This document shows positions 4,828 to 16,418 of a stretch of DNA of 16,418 nucleotides, piece by piece. This stretch comes from Breznakia blatticola (GTDB lineage Bacteria; Bacillota_I; Bacilli_A; Erysipelotrichales; Erysipelotrichaceae), in assembly GCF_004365815.1 (NCBI RefSeq), contig NZ_SODD01000052.1, forward strand, positions 1-16,418, given 5' to 3'. The translations under genes were made by a program, and so were the position numbers. Each line of letters begins with the position of its first letter. Within the stretch, counting starts at the first letter, position 1. The notes below the pieces were generated by a model. The model made no database searches. It was not told where the DNA came from and saw nothing but the letters and a program-made list of their open reading frames with translations.

Positions 4828-5715
4828 TTGTTGTATATCATCTTTTATATTTGGTTTGCGAATATCAAACCAATGAACATCCATTTGATTATTAAACCAT
4901 GTATATTGTCGCTTCGCGAAATTTCGCGTGTTTTTTTGAATAAGGCTGATAGTTTCTTCCATACTCGCTTCTTTTTGAAAATAACTTTGCCATTCTTTAT
5001 AACCAATACCACGCATACTTTGTAACGCGAAGGTTGTATCATCTTTCACAATATCCTGAAGTTCTTCAAGTAAGCCCATGTCCATCATCTTTACTACACG
5101 TGCATCAATTCGTTTGTATAGTTCACTACGTTCAACTGTTAATCCTAGTATATATGCATCATACAACATTTCATGATTTTGTTTTTGTAGGCGTTCACTT
5201 TTTTTATGACCAAGATGATTCATCATAAGGGCACGTTTGATGCGTCGAGTATTATTTGGGTGCAAAGCTTGTGCACTTTCTATATCTTCTTGTTTAAGAC
5301 GTTCATATAACTCTGTATCAGATAAACTATTCAGTAATTTACTATACGCTTCATCTTCTTGTTCTTCTTCAAACACATAATCATACAAAGCCGCTTTGAT
5401 ATATAATCCAGTACCTCCACAGATGATGGGAAGTTTTCCTTTTGCTTGAATTTCAGATATATATTTACGTGCTTGTTCTTGGAAGATTTTTACATTGTAT
5501 GTATCTTCATAGTCATAGCAATCCACTAAGTAGTGTGTAATACCATCCATTTCTTCGGGTGTAATTTTTGCACTACCAATACTTAGTTGTTTATATACTT
5601 GATAAGCATCACCACTAATGATTTCACCATTGAATTTCTTAGCTAATTCAATTGCCATCTTACTTTTTCCAACACCAGTTGGTCCAATCACAGCTAGTAC
5701 TTTTACTTTATCCAT
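4801..5715 (-). CDS. miaA: tRNA dimethylallyltransferase (tRNA isopentenyltransferase)
   Basis: 304 aa. P-loop VIGPTGVGKSK near the N-terminus, followed by EIISGDAYQVYKQLSIGSAKIT and HYLVD, which are typical MiaA motifs. Its start lies 1 nt after the mutL stop, matching the classical mutS-mutL-miaA order. Confidence 0.93.
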   Translation of the reverse strand: MDKVKVLAVIGPTGVGKSKMAIELAKKFNGEIISGDAYQVYKQLSIGSAKITPEEMDGITHYLVDCYDYEDTYNVKIFQEQARKYISEIQAKGKLPIICGGTGLYIKAALYDYVFEEEQEDEAYSKLLNSLSDTELYERLKQEDIESAQALHPNNTRRIKRALMMNHLGHKKSERLQKQNHEMLYDAYILGLTVERSELYKRIDARVVKMMDMGLLEELQDIVKDDTTFALQSMRGIGYKEWQSYFQKEASMEETISLIQKNTRNFAKRQYTWFNNQMDVHWFDIRKPNIKDDIQQQVQNFIEG

Positions 5716-7571: not shown

Positions 7572-10112
7572 CTATTTTTTTAGTTCATTTAGAAACAACA
7601 AAGCTTCAATCGGTGTCATTTGTTCGACATTTGCCTGTTGTAATTTACGTAAGACTTCTGTTGCTTGATGATCTTCTTTAACCATCTCTTCTTGCATTTC
7701 TACATGTAAGTCAATTTCTTCTTTTTGCACGTTTGCTAATATTTGACTTGCTCGTTCAAGTAAACTATTTGGAAGTTTTGCAAGTCTAGCCACATTAACT
7801 CCATATGACTTATCTGCTTTTCCTGGTTTCATTTTGTATAAGAAGACAATCTCATCATCTTCTTCATCTACTGCAACTGTAATATTGCGAATACCATCAT
7901 AGGTATCTTCAAGTGAAGTTAGTTCATGATAGTGGGTAGAGAATAGTGTTTTTGCCTTGGTATGTTCATGTAAATACTCTAACATTGCATATGCTAAACT
8001 CATTCCATCATAAGTAGAAGTACCACGTCCAATTTCATCAAATAAAATCAGTGATGCATCGGTCGCATTTTGTAAAGCGTAATTTGCTTCCATCATTTCT
8101 ACCATGAATGTAGAATGACCACTCATGATATCATCACTTGCTCCAATACGCGTAAAGATCTTATCAAAGATTGGTAAGACACATTCTTTAGCAGGTACAT
8201 AACTTCCCATTTGTGCAAGAATTACCGTTAAGGCAACTTGACGCATAAAGGTTGATTTCCCACCCATGTTTGGTCCCGTGATAATCATAATGCTGTCATC
8301 CGCACTCATTTGTAAATCGTTAGTTACATAACGACTTTTCTTCATCATATCATTTAAAATTGGATGTGCATTTTCTACTAAGTGAATACGATTGTTGTTT
8401 TCAAAGACTGGACGAATGTATCCAGGTTTACTAGCAACTACACTTAAGGCATATAGCGCATCAATTTTCGCAATCGCACGTGCAAGTTGATGTATTTTTG
8501 GTAAGTATAAACGAATTTCATCAATCAACATTTGGTAAAGTTCATATTCACGACGTACACTTTTTTCTTTGGCATGTAAGATTTTATCTTCTAAATCTTT
8601 TAGTTCTTCACTAACAAAACGTTCTGCATTGGTTAGTGTTTGTTTACGTGTATAACCAAAATCATCTTTTAGTTTACTTAGATTTGCACTACTTACTTCA
8701 ATGTAGTAACCAAATACGCGGTTGTATCCAACTTTTAATGAGTTGATTCCTGTTTGTTCTTTTTCACGTAATTCCAAATCCAAAATGTACTGATTGGCTT
8801 CATTTTGAATCTTGCGATATTCATCAAGTTGACTATCATAACCATCCACAAAGATATGTCCATCTTTTGGATTATTACTCGCATCTTCCAACATGATTCC
8901 ATCTAGTTTTAGCGTTAAATCCACACAAGCATCCACTTGCACTTCTTGAATCATTTGCTTACAACCATTAAAGACTTCCAAAATTCTAGGAGCTGCAACT
9001 AATGTTGAAGTTAGACGACGAACATCTTGTGGGTTGGCATTACCATAAGCAATCTTTGCCCCTAGACGGTCCAAGTCATATACATCACTCAACTCTTCTT
9101 TTAATTCATCTTTTAAAATAAAATTATCATTTAAATATCCAATCGCATCTAAACGTTGGTTGATTTTTCCTTCATCGATTAATGGATATGAAATCCATTG
9201 TTTTAAACAACGTGCACCTAGTGCCGTTTTCGTATGATTTAAAAACCCAAATAAAGTTTGTGACTTACTGTTAACACGTAGTGGTTGTAATAACTCTAAA
9301 TTGGCTTTTGTTGAGAAATCCATTTGTAGATATGCATCATCTTCAAGCATTTCTACTTTACCTAAATGCGACATTTCACGTTTTTGTGTTGCTTCTAAAT
9401 AGTTTGTTAGCATCGCAAAACTCGTTTTGATGTGTACATCTTGAACATCTAATAAATCTTCATATGTTGCTTTTAAAGTAAGATCTTCTTCATAGGAAAG
9501 TGTCATCGTTCCATATTCTTCTAAACGTTTTTTCACCTTGCTATCTAGACTTTCACTCACGACGATTTCTTTTACGTTCATCGATAGTAACGTCATCTGT
9601 AATGTTTGAAAATCACGGTCGATACTTTTAGCAAGAACTTGCCCACAAGTCATCTCACAAAAGCATAATGCATATCCATATTTAAAATCGTAAATGGTTG
9701 CAAGATATACACCACTTTGATTTTCATTTGCTTCTTCCATAATCGTTCCAGGTGTAACGATTTTTACAACATCTCGTTTTACAATCTTACCTGCACTAGC
9801 TTCTTCTAGTTGTTCCACGATGGCAATCTTGTATCCTTTTTGTGTTAGACGTTGAATGTACCCAGTTGCTGCATGGTAAGGAATACCACACATTGGGACT
9901 CTTTCTTCTACCCCTGCATTACGTCCTGTTAATACTAAATCAAGTTCTTTACTTGCAACAATTGCATCATCAAAGAACATTTCATAAAAATCTCCCAAAC
10001 GATAAAAAACAATACAGTCTTGAAGTCCTTTTTTCACTTCTAAGTATTGCATCATCATTGGTGTATATTTCTTTTCTTTCACTTGTTTTTTTGAATTTTC
10101 CATATGTGACAT
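7572..10112 (-). CDS. mutS: DNA mismatch repair protein MutS
   Basis: 846 aa. N-terminal mismatch-binding region (TPMMMQYLEVK...FYRLGDFYEMFFDDA). Walker A GPNMGGKST, plus DEIGRGTSTYDG and the STHYHEL motif. The start could be ATG 10112 or ATG 10103; neither has a clear SD. Confidence 0.95.
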   Translation of the reverse strand: MSHMENSKKQVKEKKYTPMMMQYLEVKKGLQDCIVFYRLGDFYEMFFDDAIVASKELDLVLTGRNAGVEERVPMCGIPYHAATGYIQRLTQKGYKIAIVEQLEEASAGKIVKRDVVKIVTPGTIMEEANENQSGVYLATIYDFKYGYALCFCEMTCGQVLAKSIDRDFQTLQMTLLSMNVKEIVVSESLDSKVKKRLEEYGTMTLSYEEDLTLKATYEDLLDVQDVHIKTSFAMLTNYLEATQKREMSHLGKVEMLEDDAYLQMDFSTKANLELLQPLRVNSKSQTLFGFLNHTKTALGARCLKQWISYPLIDEGKINQRLDAIGYLNDNFILKDELKEELSDVYDLDRLGAKIAYGNANPQDVRRLTSTLVAAPRILEVFNGCKQMIQEVQVDACVDLTLKLDGIMLEDASNNPKDGHIFVDGYDSQLDEYRKIQNEANQYILDLELREKEQTGINSLKVGYNRVFGYYIEVSSANLSKLKDDFGYTRKQTLTNAERFVSEELKDLEDKILHAKEKSVRREYELYQMLIDEIRLYLPKIHQLARAIAKIDALYALSVVASKPGYIRPVFENNNRIHLVENAHPILNDMMKKSRYVTNDLQMSADDSIMIITGPNMGGKSTFMRQVALTVILAQMGSYVPAKECVLPIFDKIFTRIGASDDIMSGHSTFMVEMMEANYALQNATDASLILFDEIGRGTSTYDGMSLAYAMLEYLHEHTKAKTLFSTHYHELTSLEDTYDGIRNITVAVDEEDDEIVFLYKMKPGKADKSYGVNVARLAKLPNSLLERASQILANVQKEEIDLHVEMQEEMVKEDHQATEVLRKLQQANVEQMTPIEALLFLNELKK

Positions 10113-10351: not shown

Positions 10352-10461
10352 AATCCTTTATTTCCACTGATTCATATAGTGCCTATAAAGTATATAAAAA
10401 AGACTATCGTTTCCGACAGTCCATGATTCATTAATCTTCTACGTAAGGTAGTGAACCCATT
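10352..10461. repeat. Direct repeat, left copy: relic of the rpsR 3' end plus terminator
   Basis: 110 bp aligning without gaps at an offset of 1363 bp to 11715-11824. There are 8 mismatches (10356, 10366-10368, 10378, 10420, 10453, 10456). On the minus strand it encodes ...GSLPYVED*, compared with the true rpsR end ...ALLPYVED*. Confidence 0.9.
10396..10421 (-). terminator. Terminator inside the left repeat; serves the three-gene cassette
   Basis: Minus strand: GACUGUCG-gaaa-CGAUAGUC (one G-U pair) followed by 6 U (plus-strand A run 10396-10401). Confidence 0.65.
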
Positions 10462-10512
10462 CTCCATTGTTCATAATATCACTCATTTTTTAATGAAGGA
10501 TAGTCCTACAAT

Positions 10513-10848
10513 TCATTCATCAGCAGTTGACGTTTTCCTCCAACAAATCGTATTCGCTAAAATTCCTACGATTACTATTATTCCGAATAATCCCCACGGA
10601 ATAATCCAAGAAATAGCCAAGGGCATTTCAAAGCGATTCAATGTTGCTACAGTCAAAATTACAGAAATAATGCTTGTGCCACCGCCCACAACGCGACAAA
10701 GTCTTTTTGCATTATATTTTTGCTTTTTTTCTTTGCTTAGCATATTGTATCCTGCAATTAAGAAACCACCTTTTCCCATTAGTAGAATAAAAGATATTAT
10801 AACGAGTATGACGACAAGTACCCAGCTTATCCAAAGTTGATCATTCAT
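10513..10848 (-). CDS. Small multi-pass membrane protein, resembling the DUF3784 family (LIAGYN motif)
   Basis: 111 aa with three hydrophobic segments. GKGGFLIAGYNMLSKEKKQKYNAKRLCR matches, from my memory, the AGYN(T)MSKEEKxKYD signature of DUF3784 proteins. AGGA lies about 9 nt upstream of the ATG. Confidence 0.7.
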   Translation of the reverse strand: MNDQLWISWVLVVILVIISFILLMGKGGFLIAGYNMLSKEKKQKYNAKRLCRVVGGGTSIISVILTVATLNRFEMPLAISWIIPWGLFGIIVIVGILANTICWRKTSTADE

Positions 10849-10862
10849 TTTTTTATATCCTA

Positions 10863-11306
10863 CTATTCTTCATTTTCATGCTTAGCATTATGCTTTATTT
10901 TTAGTATATAGGCAAGAAACACAACCATGAACAATATACCATAAATAATGCCTAATGCGCCATCAGTAATTTTTCCACTAGCAACTATCCTTACTTCTTC
11001 GATCACTAAATCGTAAATACAAGCTATGAGAGCAACAAAACCGAACAAACCAGAAAAGTATATCAAGTATTTTTGTTTTCTTTCTGTCAATGGGTATATG
11101 TCATAATAGATAAACTCGATACTGCACAACACGACAACGAGAAGGATAATTGTTAATTCTGCCCATTTGCCTGACGCCCACTCTATTCCACACGAATACA
11201 GTAGTGCGTTGATCAACAATAAGCCTACAAGCGAAAATAAGCCATGCTTAAATACATTTCCTCTTTTCAATAATTGGAGTTCATCCAAATGCTTTATTTC
11301 TTTCAT
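10863..11306 (-). CDS. Multi-pass membrane protein of unknown function
   Basis: 147 aa with about 4 predicted TM helices. GGGAGGA SD lies 7 nt upstream of the ATG at 11306, embedded in the end of the upstream XRE gene, so the two are probably co-transcribed. Confidence 0.75.
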   Translation of the reverse strand: MKEIKHLDELQLLKRGNVFKHGLFSLVGLLLINALLYSCGIEWASGKWAELTIILLVVVLCSIEFIYYDIYPLTERKQKYLIYFSGLFGFVALIACIYDLVIEEVRIVASGKITDGALGIIYGILFMVVFLAYILKIKHNAKHENEE

Positions 11307-11309
11307 TCT

Positions 11310-11507
11310 TTAATCCTCCCAAAATAATTCATCTAAGGTTTTCCCTAAGACCTTACAAATGTCAATGCAGAGTTTTACGGACGGATAATAGTCGCCTTTT
11401 TCAATAGCGTTCATTGTCTGTCGACTAACACCAATAGCTTCCGCTAAATCTTTTTGCGTCATATCAAGTGCAGCTCGTGCCGCTTTTACTTTTAGATTTT
11501 TTGCCAC
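11310..11507 (-). CDS. XRE-family helix-turn-helix transcriptional regulator
   Basis: The HTH core MTQKDLAEAIGVSRQTMNAIEKGDYYPSVKLCIDICKVLGKTLDELF is typical of small Cro/CI-type regulators. The track ORF extends to a TTG at 11531, but that codon directly abuts AAGGAG with zero spacing. GTG 11507, downstream of AAAGGTGGG, gives a family-typical protein of about 65 aa. The start remains uncertain. Confidence 0.8.
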   Translation of the reverse strand: MAKNLKVKAARAALDMTQKDLAEAIGVSRQTMNAIEKGDYYPSVKLCIDICKVLGKTLDELFWED

Positions 11508-11564
11508 AATGTGATCATTCCCACCTTTCAAACTCCTTAGTTTTTCGTTGATTACTACACATGA

Positions 11565-11605
11565 AGCATATCATATATAAAATATCGTGTCAAATAACTT
11601 TGACA
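11565..11605 (-). promoter_or_regulatory. Cassette promoter with a palindromic operator overlapping the -35
   Basis: TTGACA (rc of 11588-11593), 17-nt spacer, TATGCT (rc of 11565-11570). A perfect inverted repeat TGTCAAA-taac-TTTGACA spans 11588-11605 and is the likely binding site for the adjacent XRE repressor. Confidence 0.5.
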
Positions 11606-11714
11606 TTTATTAAAAATATATTTACATAATAGTTAAAATATTTTACTTTGTTTCTAATAAGGGCTATATGTCTTTTTGAAATTATAGGTTTTACTTATAA
11701 AAAAACAGCGTTAG

Positions 11715-11824
11715 AATCTTTTATTTCCGTCGATTCATATGGTGCCTATAAAGTATATAAAAAAGACTATCGTTTCCGACAGCCCATGATTCATTAATCT
11801 TCTACGTAAGGTAGTAAAGCCATT
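11715..11824. repeat. Direct repeat, right copy: functional rpsR 3' end plus terminator
   Basis: Partner of 10352-10461, with 102 of 110 positions identical. It covers the last 31 nt of rpsR (11794-11824) and 79 nt downstream of it. Confidence 0.9.
11759..11784 (-). terminator. rpsF-ssb-rpsR operon terminator
   Basis: Minus strand: GGCUGUCG-gaaa-CGAUAGUC followed by UUUUUU, about 10 nt after the rpsR stop. Confidence 0.65.
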
Positions 11825-12024
11825 TGGCGTGCGCGTTTAATTGCAGTAGCCAACATTCTTTGGTATTTCGCTTTTGTTCCTGTAACACGTCTAGGAATGA
11901 TTTTCCCGTTAGCTGAAATAAAGCGTCTTAACAATTCAACATCTTTGTAGTCGATTGTTTCAATTTTGTTTTTTGTAAAATAACAGATTTTTTTACGTCC
12001 AACTCTTTGTTTTTTAAAAGCCAT
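11794..12024 (-). CDS. rpsR: 30S ribosomal protein S18
   Basis: 76 aa. The stretch [60 protein letters not shown] is canonical S18. It is the last gene in the rpsF-ssb-rpsR order. Confidence 0.95.
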
Positions 12025-12895: not shown

Positions 12896-12998
12896 GCATT
12901 AAAAACCCTAAAAAACAAGGTTTTTATCAATTATTACTCGTCAATTACTGACGTTAATTTTGCATATACCGCATAACAACCATTCATTTTCAGTACCT

Positions 12999-13994
12999 TC
13001 AAAATGGCAAATCATCTTCAGATGACCACACACCATAATGCATTAGTTCATTCCCAAAATATATTGTAATTCTATACTCTCCAATTTTATTAATTAATTC
13101 TGTTAAACTACTTAGATCCAATTTATATCCGCACTTTTTTTCCACAATCATACATTTCCATTTCTTTGAGAAATTACCAATCTTCATATCAAAAGTTATT
13201 TCTGTGTTTCTTGCTTCAAAAGGATTTTCGATATTCATCAACACATCTACATCACTTAACGATACTCTTTTTACATAAGCTCTATCACTCATATTAAATA
13301 ACTCAAAACTGTTATTTATCGCAATTTTATTTTTGTATCTATCTAGAATTTTTTCGTCCTTCAAGAAGTTCACGAGTGTTGTGTAATCGGCATCAGATCT
13401 ACACCATATGTAATCCAAATAATCAAGTGATAATCTATGCGGAACAACAACCTCAGCATGTCTATGCTTTTTAATTTGATTCTTATCCTCATCCGGATTA
13501 ATTGCCCCATCATGATAAACTTTTTCAAAATCAATTCTCTTAAATTCTTCCAATGTAGACTGTAGATACATCTCTTTTGTTGCAAGCGATGTTCCAGAAA
13601 ATCTTACGTTCTCTTGAGCCAGTACATTCAAAGAGCGGAATACAAGAAATATTGGAACTGGAATATGCGCGCCTGTAAATTGTCGGCAGCTAATTGGCTT
13701 AAAACCCTCATTTATATATTGAGTTGGTGTCTTTGGACGAAAATATAATCGAACATATTTTGTGACTTCTTGATCCGTATTACTTATAACCTCTTCACTT
13801 GCATTCTCGTTTATCATTAGTTGATTTTCTTTACAATAATCCCTTGAGTACAAATTTCCACATTTTAATATAGAAACAATATTATCAATATTTGAAAAGT
13901 GATATAAATACTTAACCCACCACCTTTTACTTTCAGGTAAATACTTGAAAGCATTTTCTTCTAATACCTTCTTTATCTCATCTCTATCATCCAT
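12999..13994 (-). CDS. darT: DarT-like (DUF4433) ssDNA ADP-ribosyltransferase toxin with an extra ~110-aa C-terminal domain ending in an SSB-tail-like DDLPF
   Basis: DarT signature blocks: YLYHFSNIDNIVSILKCGNLYSR, YVRLYFRPKTPTQY, and HRHAEVVVPHRLSLDYLDYIWCRS (putative catalytic Glu in HAEVVV). The track ORF starts at 14009, but GGAG lies 7 nt upstream of the ATG at 13994 (MDDRDEIKK...). That start overlaps the upstream stop as ATGGATGA. The C-terminus is ...HYGVWSSEDDLPF*. Confidence 0.8.
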   Translation of the reverse strand: MDDRDEIKKVLEENAFKYLPESKRWWVKYLYHFSNIDNIVSILKCGNLYSRDYCKENQLMINENASEEVISNTDQEVTKYVRLYFRPKTPTQYINEGFKPISCRQFTGAHIPVPIFLVFRSLNVLAQENVRFSGTSLATKEMYLQSTLEEFKRIDFEKVYHDGAINPDEDKNQIKKHRHAEVVVPHRLSLDYLDYIWCRSDADYTTLVNFLKDEKILDRYKNKIAINNSFELFNMSDRAYVKRVSLSDVDVLMNIENPFEARNTEITFDMKIGNFSKKWKCMIVEKKCGYKLDLSSLTELINKIGEYRITIYFGNELMHYGVWSSEDDLPF

Positions 13995-14790
13995 TACATA
14001 TCTCCACATTCATAAAATCTTTTGACTGTGATGGAGTTATCTGGATAGCATCTATATATTTCTTCTTCTTAATACTAAACATTTTACAATGATCAATATT
14101 ATTTAAAACCTTTAATTTTTGAAGCACCACAGATTTAATTTCATAATCTTTAAAGTCAATATCATCTTCACTGACAAATCCTTTATTTGTAAGAGTTAAC
14201 CAAAAATGTTCCAGTTCATCTCTATTGTTCGCGAAAGTTTCACTGAACTTACTATTACTGTTTACAAAATAATCATAAAAGTTTGTAAACGAACTAATAT
14301 CAATATCATCAATAACAAGATTATTTTCAAGTTCATATTCTTTTGTGACGTCTATGTCTTTCTCATACACATAAATATCAATCGGCAAATTCGAAAGGTA
14401 GTTAATCATCATCTCTCGTACAATATTCCAATCTAAACCGCCATTGCCACACCCTAGTTTGGGAAATGCAATTGATGTTATGCCTTTCTCTTGATATGTA
14501 TCAACAAATTTTTCTAAACCTTTTTCAATATATTCATATTCAGATTTATTTCTCCAGTGTTTTTTTGTAGGAAAATTTAAAATCCATTTATCTGATTCCG
14601 TATATAAATACAGTTTCCCAATGTCAAACATGTTATTTTTACAAAAGTAATGGTACTTACTAAACATGTCTGGGTATTCTTTTTTAAATTTTGCAGCTAT
14701 GCCTTTACCCATAACTCCAACGGTATTTACTGTATTTACCAACACTTTTGCTGGAGAATTGAATAAATCACCTTGAACGAATGTTAACAT
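13987..14790 (-). CDS. darG: DarG-like macrodomain protein (putative ADP-ribosyl-DNA glycohydrolase antitoxin) with an uncharacterised C-terminal half
   Basis: MLTFVQGDLFNSPAKVLVNTVNTVGVMGKGIAAKFKKEYP, NFPTKKHWRNKS and SIAFPKLGCGNGGLDW match the DarG/TARG1-type macrodomain blocks, including the lysine in FPTK(K/R)HW. The track start TTG 14799 is replaced by ATG 14790, which lies downstream of GAAAGG. Confidence 0.8.
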   Translation of the reverse strand: MLTFVQGDLFNSPAKVLVNTVNTVGVMGKGIAAKFKKEYPDMFSKYHYFCKNNMFDIGKLYLYTESDKWILNFPTKKHWRNKSEYEYIEKGLEKFVDTYQEKGITSIAFPKLGCGNGGLDWNIVREMMINYLSNLPIDIYVYEKDIDVTKEYELENNLVIDDIDISSFTNFYDYFVNSNSKFSETFANNRDELEHFWLTLTNKGFVSEDDIDFKDYEIKSVVLQKLKVLNNIDHCKMFSIKKKKYIDAIQITPSQSKDFMNVEICNG

Positions 14791-14813
14791 ATATACCAAC
14801 CTTTCTTTTTTAT

Positions 14814-14822
14814 ATTATACCA
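14814..14822 (-). promoter_or_regulatory. Extended -10 promoter (TGgTATAAT) for the macrodomain/DarT-like pair
   Basis: The rc of 14814-14822 reads TGGTATAAT. It lies 23 nt upstream of the ATG at 14790 and just downstream of the ispD stop (14834). No strong -35 is present, as is common for extended -10 promoters. Confidence 0.5.
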
Positions 14823-14833
14823 TGGATATGGAA

Positions 14834-15475
14834 CTACTTAATATCTTCACCTGTTGTTATTTTACGATTTTTATAAGATCCAGGTATCACTTTAATCGGA
14901 CATGCACAGTATTTTTCTACTAGTTGTGCATCATCACTCCCAACAAATTTATCTTGTTTTGCGAGGCTATGACAATCACGAATGAGTCCTGCACTAAATG
15001 CTTGTGGTGTTTGTGCTGCTTGGTAATCTTCACGTTTTGGTGTACTGATAACAAGCCCATCTGCATCGACTTGTTTAATCGTGTCAGTAACTGGCACCAT
15101 TGGTAAGCATGCATCATATTCATCAAGTGTTTCTTTGATTTGATCAAGTAGTTGTTGATCAATATACGGTCGAGCTCCATCATGAATCATCACATGATCC
15201 TGATTTACCTTTTTTAGTCCACTTGCCACACTATCTTGACGCGTATCACCGCCAAGAACATACTCTACTTTATTTGCATGTACCAACTTCTCAAAATGTT
15301 CTTGTTCACCATCAGCAGTCACGATAATAATTTGTTTACAGTCTTCATCTGATGCAAAGACATCTACTGAATAATTGATAATCGCTTTTCCATCAATTTC
15401 ATGAAACACCTTGTTGTAAGCAAGTCCTGTTCTTTGACCTTTTCCTGCCGCAACAATAATCACACTATATTCCAT
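14834..15475 (-). CDS. ispD: 2-C-methyl-D-erythritol 4-phosphate cytidylyltransferase (IspD/TarI family)
   Basis: 213 aa. The N-terminal VIIVAAGKGQRTGLAYNKVF nucleotide-binding signature and HDGARPY are typical of IspD-family cytidylyltransferases. IspD and TarI cannot be told apart by eye. Confidence 0.85.
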   Translation of the reverse strand: MEYSVIIVAAGKGQRTGLAYNKVFHEIDGKAIINYSVDVFASDEDCKQIIIVTADGEQEHFEKLVHANKVEYVLGGDTRQDSVASGLKKVNQDHVMIHDGARPYIDQQLLDQIKETLDEYDACLPMVPVTDTIKQVDADGLVISTPKREDYQAAQTPQAFSAGLIRDCHSLAKQDKFVGSDDAQLVEKYCACPIKVIPGSYKNRKITTGEDIK

Positions 15476-16314: not shown

Positions 16315-16357
16315 AGTATTTTCGTCGAGTAGACAAATCTCGACATTCCTCCTCTCT

Positions 16358-16418
16358 ATGTGAAGGTTGTCTAATTCACCCCTCACAGAACCGTACGTGC
16401 GGTTTTCCCGCATACGGC
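16358..16418 (-). mobile_element. 3' end of a group II intron (domain V and domain VI), truncated by the window edge
   Basis: The minus strand reads GCCGUAU-GCGG-GAAAA-CCGC-ACGUACGGUUC (16418-16388). This matches the domain V consensus: the CCGUAU...ACGUACGGUUC arms, the 2-nt bulge, and a GAAA-type loop. A DVI-like hairpin GUGAGGGGUG...CAACCUUCAC follows, with an unpaired A 7-9 nt from a CAC/CAU end at about 16358-16360. Confidence 0.8.

Follow-up and report, generated by a model that had tools for sequence, protein, structure and literature searches.

A Three-Gene Cassette Between Repeated rpsR 3′ Ends in Breznakia blatticola, a Probable Decayed Fragment of a Conjugative-Element Accessory Region

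Introduction

In contig NZ_SODD01000052.1 of Breznakia blatticola, the 3′ end of rpsR, the gene for ribosomal protein S18, is present twice. One copy is the end of the true gene; the other lies 1363 bp away on the mutS side, and a three-gene cassette sits between them. The window analyzed here is this entire contig, 16,418 nt long, and positions are those of its forward strand; the genes concerned are on the minus strand. The repeat copy joined to rpsR is called proximal, and the copy on the mutS side distal. The locus raises a simple question: are the long direct repeats the attachment (att) sites of an island put in place by an integrase, or did the cassette come to lie behind rpsR in some other way?

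The answer proposed here is that the 1363 bp, i.e., one repeat copy plus 1253 bp, form a strain-variable insertion, which would be a decayed piece, not autonomous, from the accessory region of a larger element of the integrative and conjugative (ICE) or integrative and mobilizable (IME) type. We put the probability of this reading at roughly 0.6. A decayed remnant is favored because the relatives of the cassette lie in ICE/IME elements and the insert ends in a truncated fourth gene. The locus would then show, at base-pair resolution, how an accessory operon of a conjugative element becomes a stable part of the chromosome of a gut bacterium, beside an essential ribosomal operon.

The Repeat Pair at the rpsR 3′ End

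The repeat pair and its immediate neighbors are as follows, all on the minus strand.

11794–12024: rpsR, ribosomal protein S18, 76 aa, last gene of the rpsF-ssb-rpsR operon (PF01084, E 3e-28), ending in MALLPYVED and a stop.
11715–11824: repeat copy proximal to rpsR, comprising the nine C-terminal codons with their stop plus 79 bp 3′ (repeat search and sequence).
11764–11785: intrinsic terminator of the proximal copy, assigned to rpsF-ssb-rpsR (terminator scan; fold −13.7 kcal/mol, z −3.65).
10352–10461: distal repeat copy, a dead rpsR 3′ end (10431–10461, MGSLPYVED and a stop) plus 79 bp 3′ (sequence and strain comparison).
10401–10422: terminator of the distal copy, probably the native rpsR terminator and predicted to end the cassette transcript (terminator scan; fold −14.3 kcal/mol, z −3.5).
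7572–10112: mutS, the right-hand neighbor of the site (MutS domains I–V).

A repeat search of the window aligns 10352–10461 with 11715–11824 as a gapless direct repeat of 110 nt at a spacing of 1363 bp. By direct count, 102 of the 110 positions are identical (93%), leaving eight mismatches, and the two copies share identical blocks of 32 and 41 bp. The limits of homology are exact. That is, on the coding (minus) strand it starts at AATGG, reaches 79 bp beyond the rpsR stop, ends at AAAGATT, and is then lost. The rpsR of the window terminates with CCTTACGTAGAAGATTAA, supplied by the proximal copy, while the distal copy translates to the MGSLPYVED end with no gene in front of it. Both copies carry a terminator with a 9-bp stem, a GAAA loop, and a T run (11785–11764 and 10422–10401; fold z about −3.6).

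When the copy lying to the left in the window was compared by BLAST with the whole 2.46-Mb assembly, only these two places were found (E 3e-52 and 2e-41); the pair is therefore not due to chance. The initial annotation of the window had given the same coordinates, offset, and identity, had read the right copy as the real rpsR C-terminus with its terminator and the left copy as a decayed end with a second functional-looking terminator, and had suggested a search for further copies. Those coordinates, offset, and identity are exact, as judged by the repeat search and our own count. The readings of the right copy (PF01084 match, MALLPYVED end, terminator scan) and of the left (translation, fold z −3.5) hold as well, and the genome contains no third copy.

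Direct repeats that flank an insert, together with short-read graphs that break inside the repeat, as they do at three loci (L094 and two others, one of them from the window's own sample), might also be expected of an assembly artefact, a recent tandem duplication, or a transposon with its target-site duplication. We consider this explanation effectively refuted by spanning assemblies and by the comparison with empty-site alleles given below. Each repeat copy has variants of its own. Loci L033 and L034, which come from other samples, extend across the two copies and the flanks on either side. The Logan contigs of run SRR8436184 match the window at 100% and break off only inside shared blocks. 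The insert is unrelated to its flanks. As to a transposon, there is no transposase and no inverted repeat at the insert ends, and the 110-bp repeat is diverged; between 9000 and 13000 only two weak inverted pairs occur (70% and 78% complementary), neither at the insert ends. To our knowledge, a target duplication of 110 bp is outside the known transposon range. The view first taken of this locus, that the duplication is neither artefact nor recent tandem copy, is thus borne out by the private variants of each copy and by the independent assemblies across both.

A separate observation concerns L094, a Logan contig of run SRR29082272, which is exactly 1363 bp long and runs from a shared 30-bp block to just before the next occurrence of that block. 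It was considered as an excised circle and set aside as such: with its start and end at the shared block, it does not discriminate between circle and integrated form. The single-period contig is attributed to a break in the assembly graph, and a circular form would give an identical contig.

Empty, Occupied, and Alternative Alleles

An exact-sequence search with the S18 protein yielded 22 contigs, and these are the basis of our comparison of the rpsR-mutS interval. Three allele types are found in the same or a sister species, as follows. The empty allele, present at five loci from one study (L028 among them), consists of rpsR, a single repeat copy, and mutS, with 327 bp between the genes; its flanks are 96–99% identical to the window, and these strains are therefore the same species. 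This is the single-repeat empty site that the initial annotation had proposed to look for in relatives. The cassette allele is found in L033, L034, and L094 as well as in the window, with the same cassette between two copies at 97.5–98.3% identity to the window. L033 is an NCBI assembly, and the same contig occurs in 16 samples. The third allele, found in the sister species (genome G001, locus L029) and in locus L030, has a gene for a VWA surface protein and no repeat duplication, and it departs in sequence right from the bases that follow the rpsR stop. The VWA protein (in G001 at 5112–6950 of L023, and in L029 and L030) is about 600 aa long, contains a proline-rich repeat, and has a membrane anchor at its C-terminus.

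The rpsR-mutS interval would appear to be a hot spot of gene gain in the genus, because the sister species holds the VWA gene there. The two remaining species of the genus do not have rpsR and mutS side by side; in these congeners rpsR is followed by other genes, with no integrase among them.

The difference between the occupied and empty alleles can be located closely.

11788–11814, minus strand: 27-bp exchange interval CTACCTTACGTAGAAGATTAATGAATC spanning the rpsR stop, in the proximal copy, with its distal counterpart at 10425–10451 (in-silico deletion, L033 against L028).

Deletion of 1363 bp from L033, with the cut placed anywhere in these 27 bp, yields the L028 sequence with 0 mismatches from −88 to +550 (638 bp). 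The same deletion in silico from the window gives a similar exchange interval, and the length of the insert is exactly one repeat period. Since the deletion of one period regenerates L028 exactly, the occupied and empty alleles would appear to differ by one reciprocal exchange within the 27 bp across the rpsR stop.

The two copies are not equivalent in origin. The distal copy of L033 and L034 is that of the empty strains save for one base, which is in the dead coding remnant; their proximal copy differs from the empty-site sequence at nine positions. This pattern indicates that the distal copy is the native allele and that the copy joined to rpsR is a different one, which probably came in with the insert. 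Expression of rpsR would then be undisturbed, because the insert carries its own gene end and terminator, and the native rpsR terminator would be reused by the new operon.

The distal copy of the window is less simple. It has four variant positions in common with the proximal type, plus private changes, a mosaic that suggests a partial conversion tract or allelic variation. Over the 110-bp segment it is about 9% divergent from L028. Between the window and L033 the cassette is about 1.5% divergent and mutS about 3%, values that point to long residence of the insert and not to its recent spread. On the rpsF-ssb-rpsR side, conservation between strains exceeds 99%, and in a three-way comparison of the left flank the differences are too few and conflicting, with no import tract visible.

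A further observation was made in comparing L033 and L028. Their 638 identical bp are followed by an abrupt rise to about 3.5% divergence about 550 bp 3′ of the rpsR stop, inside mutS. This step marks a recombination breakpoint near the insertion site.

Cassette Content

The insert holds the following features, all on the minus strand.

11628–11714: 87-bp spacer at the left end of the insert, with no homologue in other cassette contexts.
11565–11605: predicted cassette promoter (TTGACA, 17 nt, TATGCT with TG), with a palindrome (arms TGTCAAA and TTTGACA around GTTA) over the −35 (promoter scan and sequence).
11310–11507: XRE-family helix-turn-helix regulator, 65 aa, GTG start (PF01381, E 1e-16).
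10863–11306: membrane protein of 147 aa, about four hydrophobic segments (unmatched in Pfam, NCBIfam, PADLOC, and PHROG).
10513–10848: DUF3784 membrane protein, 111 aa (PF12650, E 6e-19).

The 1253 bp between the copies hold the promoter/operator region and the genes for the XRE regulator, the 147-aa membrane protein, and the DUF3784 protein. Pfam searches with all three open reading frames gave HTH_3, no match, and DUF3784, respectively; no recombinase, transposase, or relaxase domain is present in the insert (10462–11714), and no further reading frame in this segment has an integration, excision, relaxase, or conjugation domain. The insert thus has the gene content by which a cis-mobilizable element (CIME) is recognized, one free of integration, excision, relaxase, and conjugation genes. 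Pfam and the promoter scan agree in this with the initial annotation, which had described a three-gene unit with promoter/operator and no recombinase.

The regulator is most likely an autorepressor acting on the −35 palindrome TGTCAAAGTTATTTGACA, a putative site, and controlling the two membrane proteins. For neither of the latter did PADLOC, PHROGs, or NCBIfam provide a function (no defence, phage, or named family). There is no convincing terminator between the DUF3784 stop and the distal repeat (z −0.7). As judged from the sequence, the rpsF-ssb-rpsR transcript would stop at the proximal-copy terminator and the cassette transcript at the native rpsR terminator.

Relatives of the Cassette in Mobile Elements

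The 147-aa protein has 80 relatives in a large protein collection, the nearest outside the species being 80% identical. Cassette relatives, at 64–80% identity, are found only inside ICE/IME-type elements of other Firmicutes. Every longer context recovered places the three genes inside a mobile element, and none adjoins rpsR. In Traorella massiliensis (Erysipelotrichaceae) and related metagenome contigs, the cassette follows Mob_Pre, ParB, a 562-aa serine recombinase with DUF4368, and TnpV. In other metagenome contigs, it lies between conjugation genes (VirB4-like, NlpC/P60, TpcC) and a sigma/HTH_16/serine-recombinase block. The position from TpcC and NlpC/P60 to the sigma/HTH_16/recombinase block is, we take it, the cargo slot of the Tn916 and Tn5397 ICEs.

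DNA homology to these relatives begins at about 11627, just upstream of the promoter and palindromic operator, a region that is conserved in the other cassette contexts. BLAST alignments stop between about 10511 and 10543, near the DUF3784 stop. The 87-bp left spacer has no homologue in the other cassette contexts, phages, plasmids, or IMG/VR, and among 400 family genomes it gave chance-level AT-rich matches only. No donor was found: the short contigs of the nearest relative of the 147-aa protein do not share the insert ends, and exact-pattern scans of JGI metagenome contigs for the left end and terminator of the insert gave no match.

The regulator is more uniform than its partners. The 65-aa XRE protein (loci L051–L057) is 89–97% identical across Lachnospiraceae, Oscillospiraceae, Emergencia, and Erysipelotrichaceae, whereas its two membrane partners are only 56–80% identical in those elements; the operator palindrome is conserved.

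The Distal Joint

The end of the insert next to the distal repeat is informative.

10457–10484, minus strand: remnant of a fourth gene, of the Cys_rich_KTR type, with ribosome-binding site and ATG AAC AAT GGA GAA TGG (alignment to the start of KTR genes).

In the relatives, the fourth gene after DUF3784 encodes a 63-aa Cys_rich_KTR zinc-ribbon protein (PF14205, E 1e-28). Both the window and L033 retain the ribosome-binding site of this gene and its first six codons, which end at 10457 (10474–10457). The remnant matches the KTR start in the Traorella and metagenome IMEs at 24 of 30 nt, a score reached by 0 of 2000 shuffles; over the 21 nt before AATGG, 15 of 21 match, in register, which none of 20000 shuffles attained. 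KTR-like sequence gives way to rpsR-like sequence at AATGGCTTT. The joint is seen by aligning the KTR gene of the relatives, GGAAATGGCTTTTATGCC, with rpsR, GCCAAATGGCTTTACTACC, and the L033 junction, GGAGAATGGCTTTGCTACC.

The six KTR codons run into the rpsR remnant at a shared AATGG(CTTT). The end of the distal repeat that lies inside the gene is therefore best described as a probable illegitimate joint, guided by microhomology and truncating an element gene, rather than as a clean att boundary. Such joints are known from homology-facilitated illegitimate recombination (HFIR; work of de Vries with Wackernagel and of Prudhomme and colleagues, both 2002), in which microhomologies of 3–10 bp are used (PMC6382021). 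Here, a microhomology joint of this kind stands beside a homologous anchor, its length ranging from AATGG, which is certain, to a presumed AATGGCTTT.

A joint of this kind would also be left by a one-step insertion during replication or repair. The nascent strand would leave its template 79 bp after the rpsR stop, copy about 1.25 kb from a resident ICE, and return 110 bp upstream at AATGG(CTTT), duplicating the target; the copies would diverge later by mutation and allelic recombination. Besides the microhomology, such a template switch accords with an insert that is an internal ICE/IME accessory fragment with a truncated gene at one end, with frequent recombination near the site (the L033/L028 breakpoint at +550 and the mosaic distal copy of the window), and with the divergence of the 110-bp segment to about 9% between strains (window distal copy against L028). 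The copies would, however, have started out identical, yet nine of the ten L033 differences are in the proximal copy when L028 is the reference, and an additional step of allelic replacement is needed. We regard this one-step route as distinctly improbable.

Are the Repeats Att Sites?

The initial annotation had likened the repeats to attL and attR. The likeness is good in that there are direct repeats and an exact empty site; it is weaker at the distal boundary, which is a microhomology joint, and the repeats are at most a possible intact att pair. If the repeats were nonetheless the functional attL and attR of an rpsR-specific tyrosine integrase, the locus would be an intact mini-island, mobilizable in cis or in trans (a solitary CIME), whose 1363-bp unit is moved by an element absent from this genome. 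The layout is classical, with a ribosomal gene 3′ end, a restored coding end, and a precise empty site, and the exchange can be placed in a short stretch at the stop codon, close to where the identity block ends inside the gene. In streptococci, CIMEs of 1.2–13 kb that carry cargo are frequent at rpsI, rpmG, and rplL (PMC7563491), and the rpsR 3′ end is the attB of the staphylococcal islands SaPI4 and SscPIC2865 (10.1101/2020.09.30.320143). Elsewhere in the B. blatticola genome are two tyrosine recombinases not of Xer size and one large serine recombinase.

Several results oppose this explanation. No cognate integrase element and no third att-like copy were found in the genome, nor was an attP or a tandem element. 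Searched with a degenerate pattern for the rpsR C-terminal codons, only 14 of 401 family genomes have the rpsR-end motif, and only this one has it twice; with so few carriers, the search has little power to reveal recurrent rpsR-end duplication. The stop-codon core has no match in IMG/VR, the repeat has none in phage records, and plasmids yield only a distant XRE match. At the distal side, the truncated gene is fused by microhomology about 10 nt from the exchange interval, so that any arm-type sites there have been lost. Identity between the copies extends 79 bp beyond the stop codon, through species-specific sequence without obvious function. The elements that carry the cassette relatives use serine recombinases and do not produce long repeats. 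Thus, an intact, integrase-moved unit is possible but unlikely, and mobilization in trans, one of the three options of the initial annotation, found no support.

The unit could also be a recombinase-free mobile cassette that uses the 110-bp rpsR end and terminator as a portable homology arm and enters or leaves the rpsR-mutS interval of different strains through host recombination alone or through an rpsR-specific integrase yet to be sampled. We think this quite unlikely; if true, it would be the first solitary CIME-like element described for the Erysipelotrichaceae.

Origin of the Insert

The reading preferred here is that of a decayed ICE/IME fragment, and of the options first offered for the locus it is the one best supported, by the ICE/IME relatives and the truncated KTR gene. 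The associated claim, that the insert brought a replacement 3′ end, also agrees with the strain comparison, in which the rpsR-joined copy is the other allele and the distal copy the empty-site allele; the direction is our inference. We suggest that a larger element was once present behind rpsR and that all but 1.25 kb of it was lost. Two routes can be envisioned. First, within an att-flanked element, a deletion may have joined the KTR gene to the rpsR-derived sequence that lay at the element's far end. Second, an exchange between an element-bearing chromosome and an empty allele may have left one homologous joint and one microhomology joint. Later gain and loss between strains would proceed via the repeats or flanking homology. 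RecA acting on the identical blocks of 26–41 bp would be sufficient for occasional loss, and no integrase would be required, though one may have taken part.

The proposed derivation from an ICE/IME is consistent with the placement of the relatives and with the truncated fourth gene, which would mark a deletion or illegitimate joint; the parent was not seen at this site. The following points count against it. The reading does not account for the left 87 bp or the left junction. The nearest cassette relatives are 73–80% identical, the parent element was not found, and the parent KTR sequence is a presumed one. Only AATGG is shared for certain at the distal joint, and CTTT belongs to it only if the parent gene resembled the sequenced relatives. 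The direction of the L033/L028 difference, gain or loss, is not fixed without an outgroup, and the nearest other species differs after the rpsR stop. The transformation form of the exchange model is weakened by the finding that the ComEC "Competence" domain (PF03772) is not detected in this 97%-complete genome, in a search whose control matched 10 of 14 reference genomes; incoming DNA would therefore have needed conjugation or transduction, unless an internal deletion took place instead. Finally, integrases have been proven to target the rpsR 3′ end in staphylococci, and it stays plausible that the repeats arose as att sites.

To summarize what the locus may teach, the presence of long direct repeats at a housekeeping gene's 3′ end does not prove that they are integrase att sites, a caution for automatic callers of islands and CIMEs. 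In addition, the occupied and empty alleles are a natural pair with which to study the function of the widespread XRE/147-aa/DUF3784 module.

Neighboring Genes and Other Features of the Window

The gene order around the site, all on the minus strand, is HAD hydrolase, ispD, a DarG-like macro-domain gene, DarT, rpsF, ssb, and rpsR, followed by the XRE regulator, the 147-aa membrane protein, the DUF3784 protein, mutS, mutL, miaA, and a VWA surface-protein gene. Two further features were observed. The DarG-like/DarT pair (12938–14835) is a second strain-variable insertion, missing with exact boundaries in the sister species G001 and in all empty-site strains, and present in locus L036, which is from the window's own sample. 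At 16324–16418 is the 3′ part of a group II intron (Rfam RF00029, 48.8 bits), cut by the contig end.

Comparison with Known Systems

The closest parallels in layout are the CIMEs and decayed ICE/IME remnants found in streptococci at the 3′ ends of rpsI, rpmG, rplL, fda, and tRNA-Lys genes (PMC6323972, PMC7563491); ribosomal protein gene 3′ ends are favored integrase targets (PMC7563491). As here, the streptococcal CIMEs are small (1.2–13 kb) cargo-only units at a ribosomal gene 3′ end, without integrase, relaxase, or conjugation genes and with direct repeats and a restored gene end. The streptococcal units are thought to derive from ICEs/IMEs by deletion, which may also hold for this locus. 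In contrast, no cognate integrase or att partner is known for the rpsR site of the Erysipelotrichaceae. The repeat of the window is 110 bp long, 7–9% diverged, and extends 79 bp beyond the gene, and one of its boundaries is a microhomology joint.

The target gene itself is familiar from staphylococci, where the phage-inducible chromosomal islands SaPI4 and SscPIC2865 reside at the rpsR 3′ end and rpsR has been called an island-integration hub (bioRxiv 10.1101/2020.09.30.320143). The gene and the end used are the same, and in both cases the rpsR frame is restored upon insertion. The staphylococcal islands differ in being about 15 kb long, with a tyrosine integrase and a 15-bp core, AAAGAAGAACAATAA, compared with the 110-bp repeat here. 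Neither a SaPI4-type integrase in or beside the insert nor the core is present in B. blatticola, and its rpsR end differs.

In the nature of its joints, the locus resembles HFIR products, with one joint of extended homology and one of microhomology, foreign DNA beside a conserved anchor, and a target that may be duplicated or deleted. HFIR was, however, defined in naturally transformable bacteria, whereas no ComEC domain was found here. In gene content, it resembles the Tn916/Tn5397-type ICEs and the Tn4451-like IMEs, which use large serine recombinases: cassette relatives occupy the cargo slot or adjoin TnpV, a serine recombinase, and Mob_Pre. Unlike these elements, the window keeps the cargo operon only, in a chromosomal setting and with no backbone gene. 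Taken together, the locus is best regarded as a decayed mini-island whose general kind is known; its target gene has been described in staphylococci, and the bacterial family is new.

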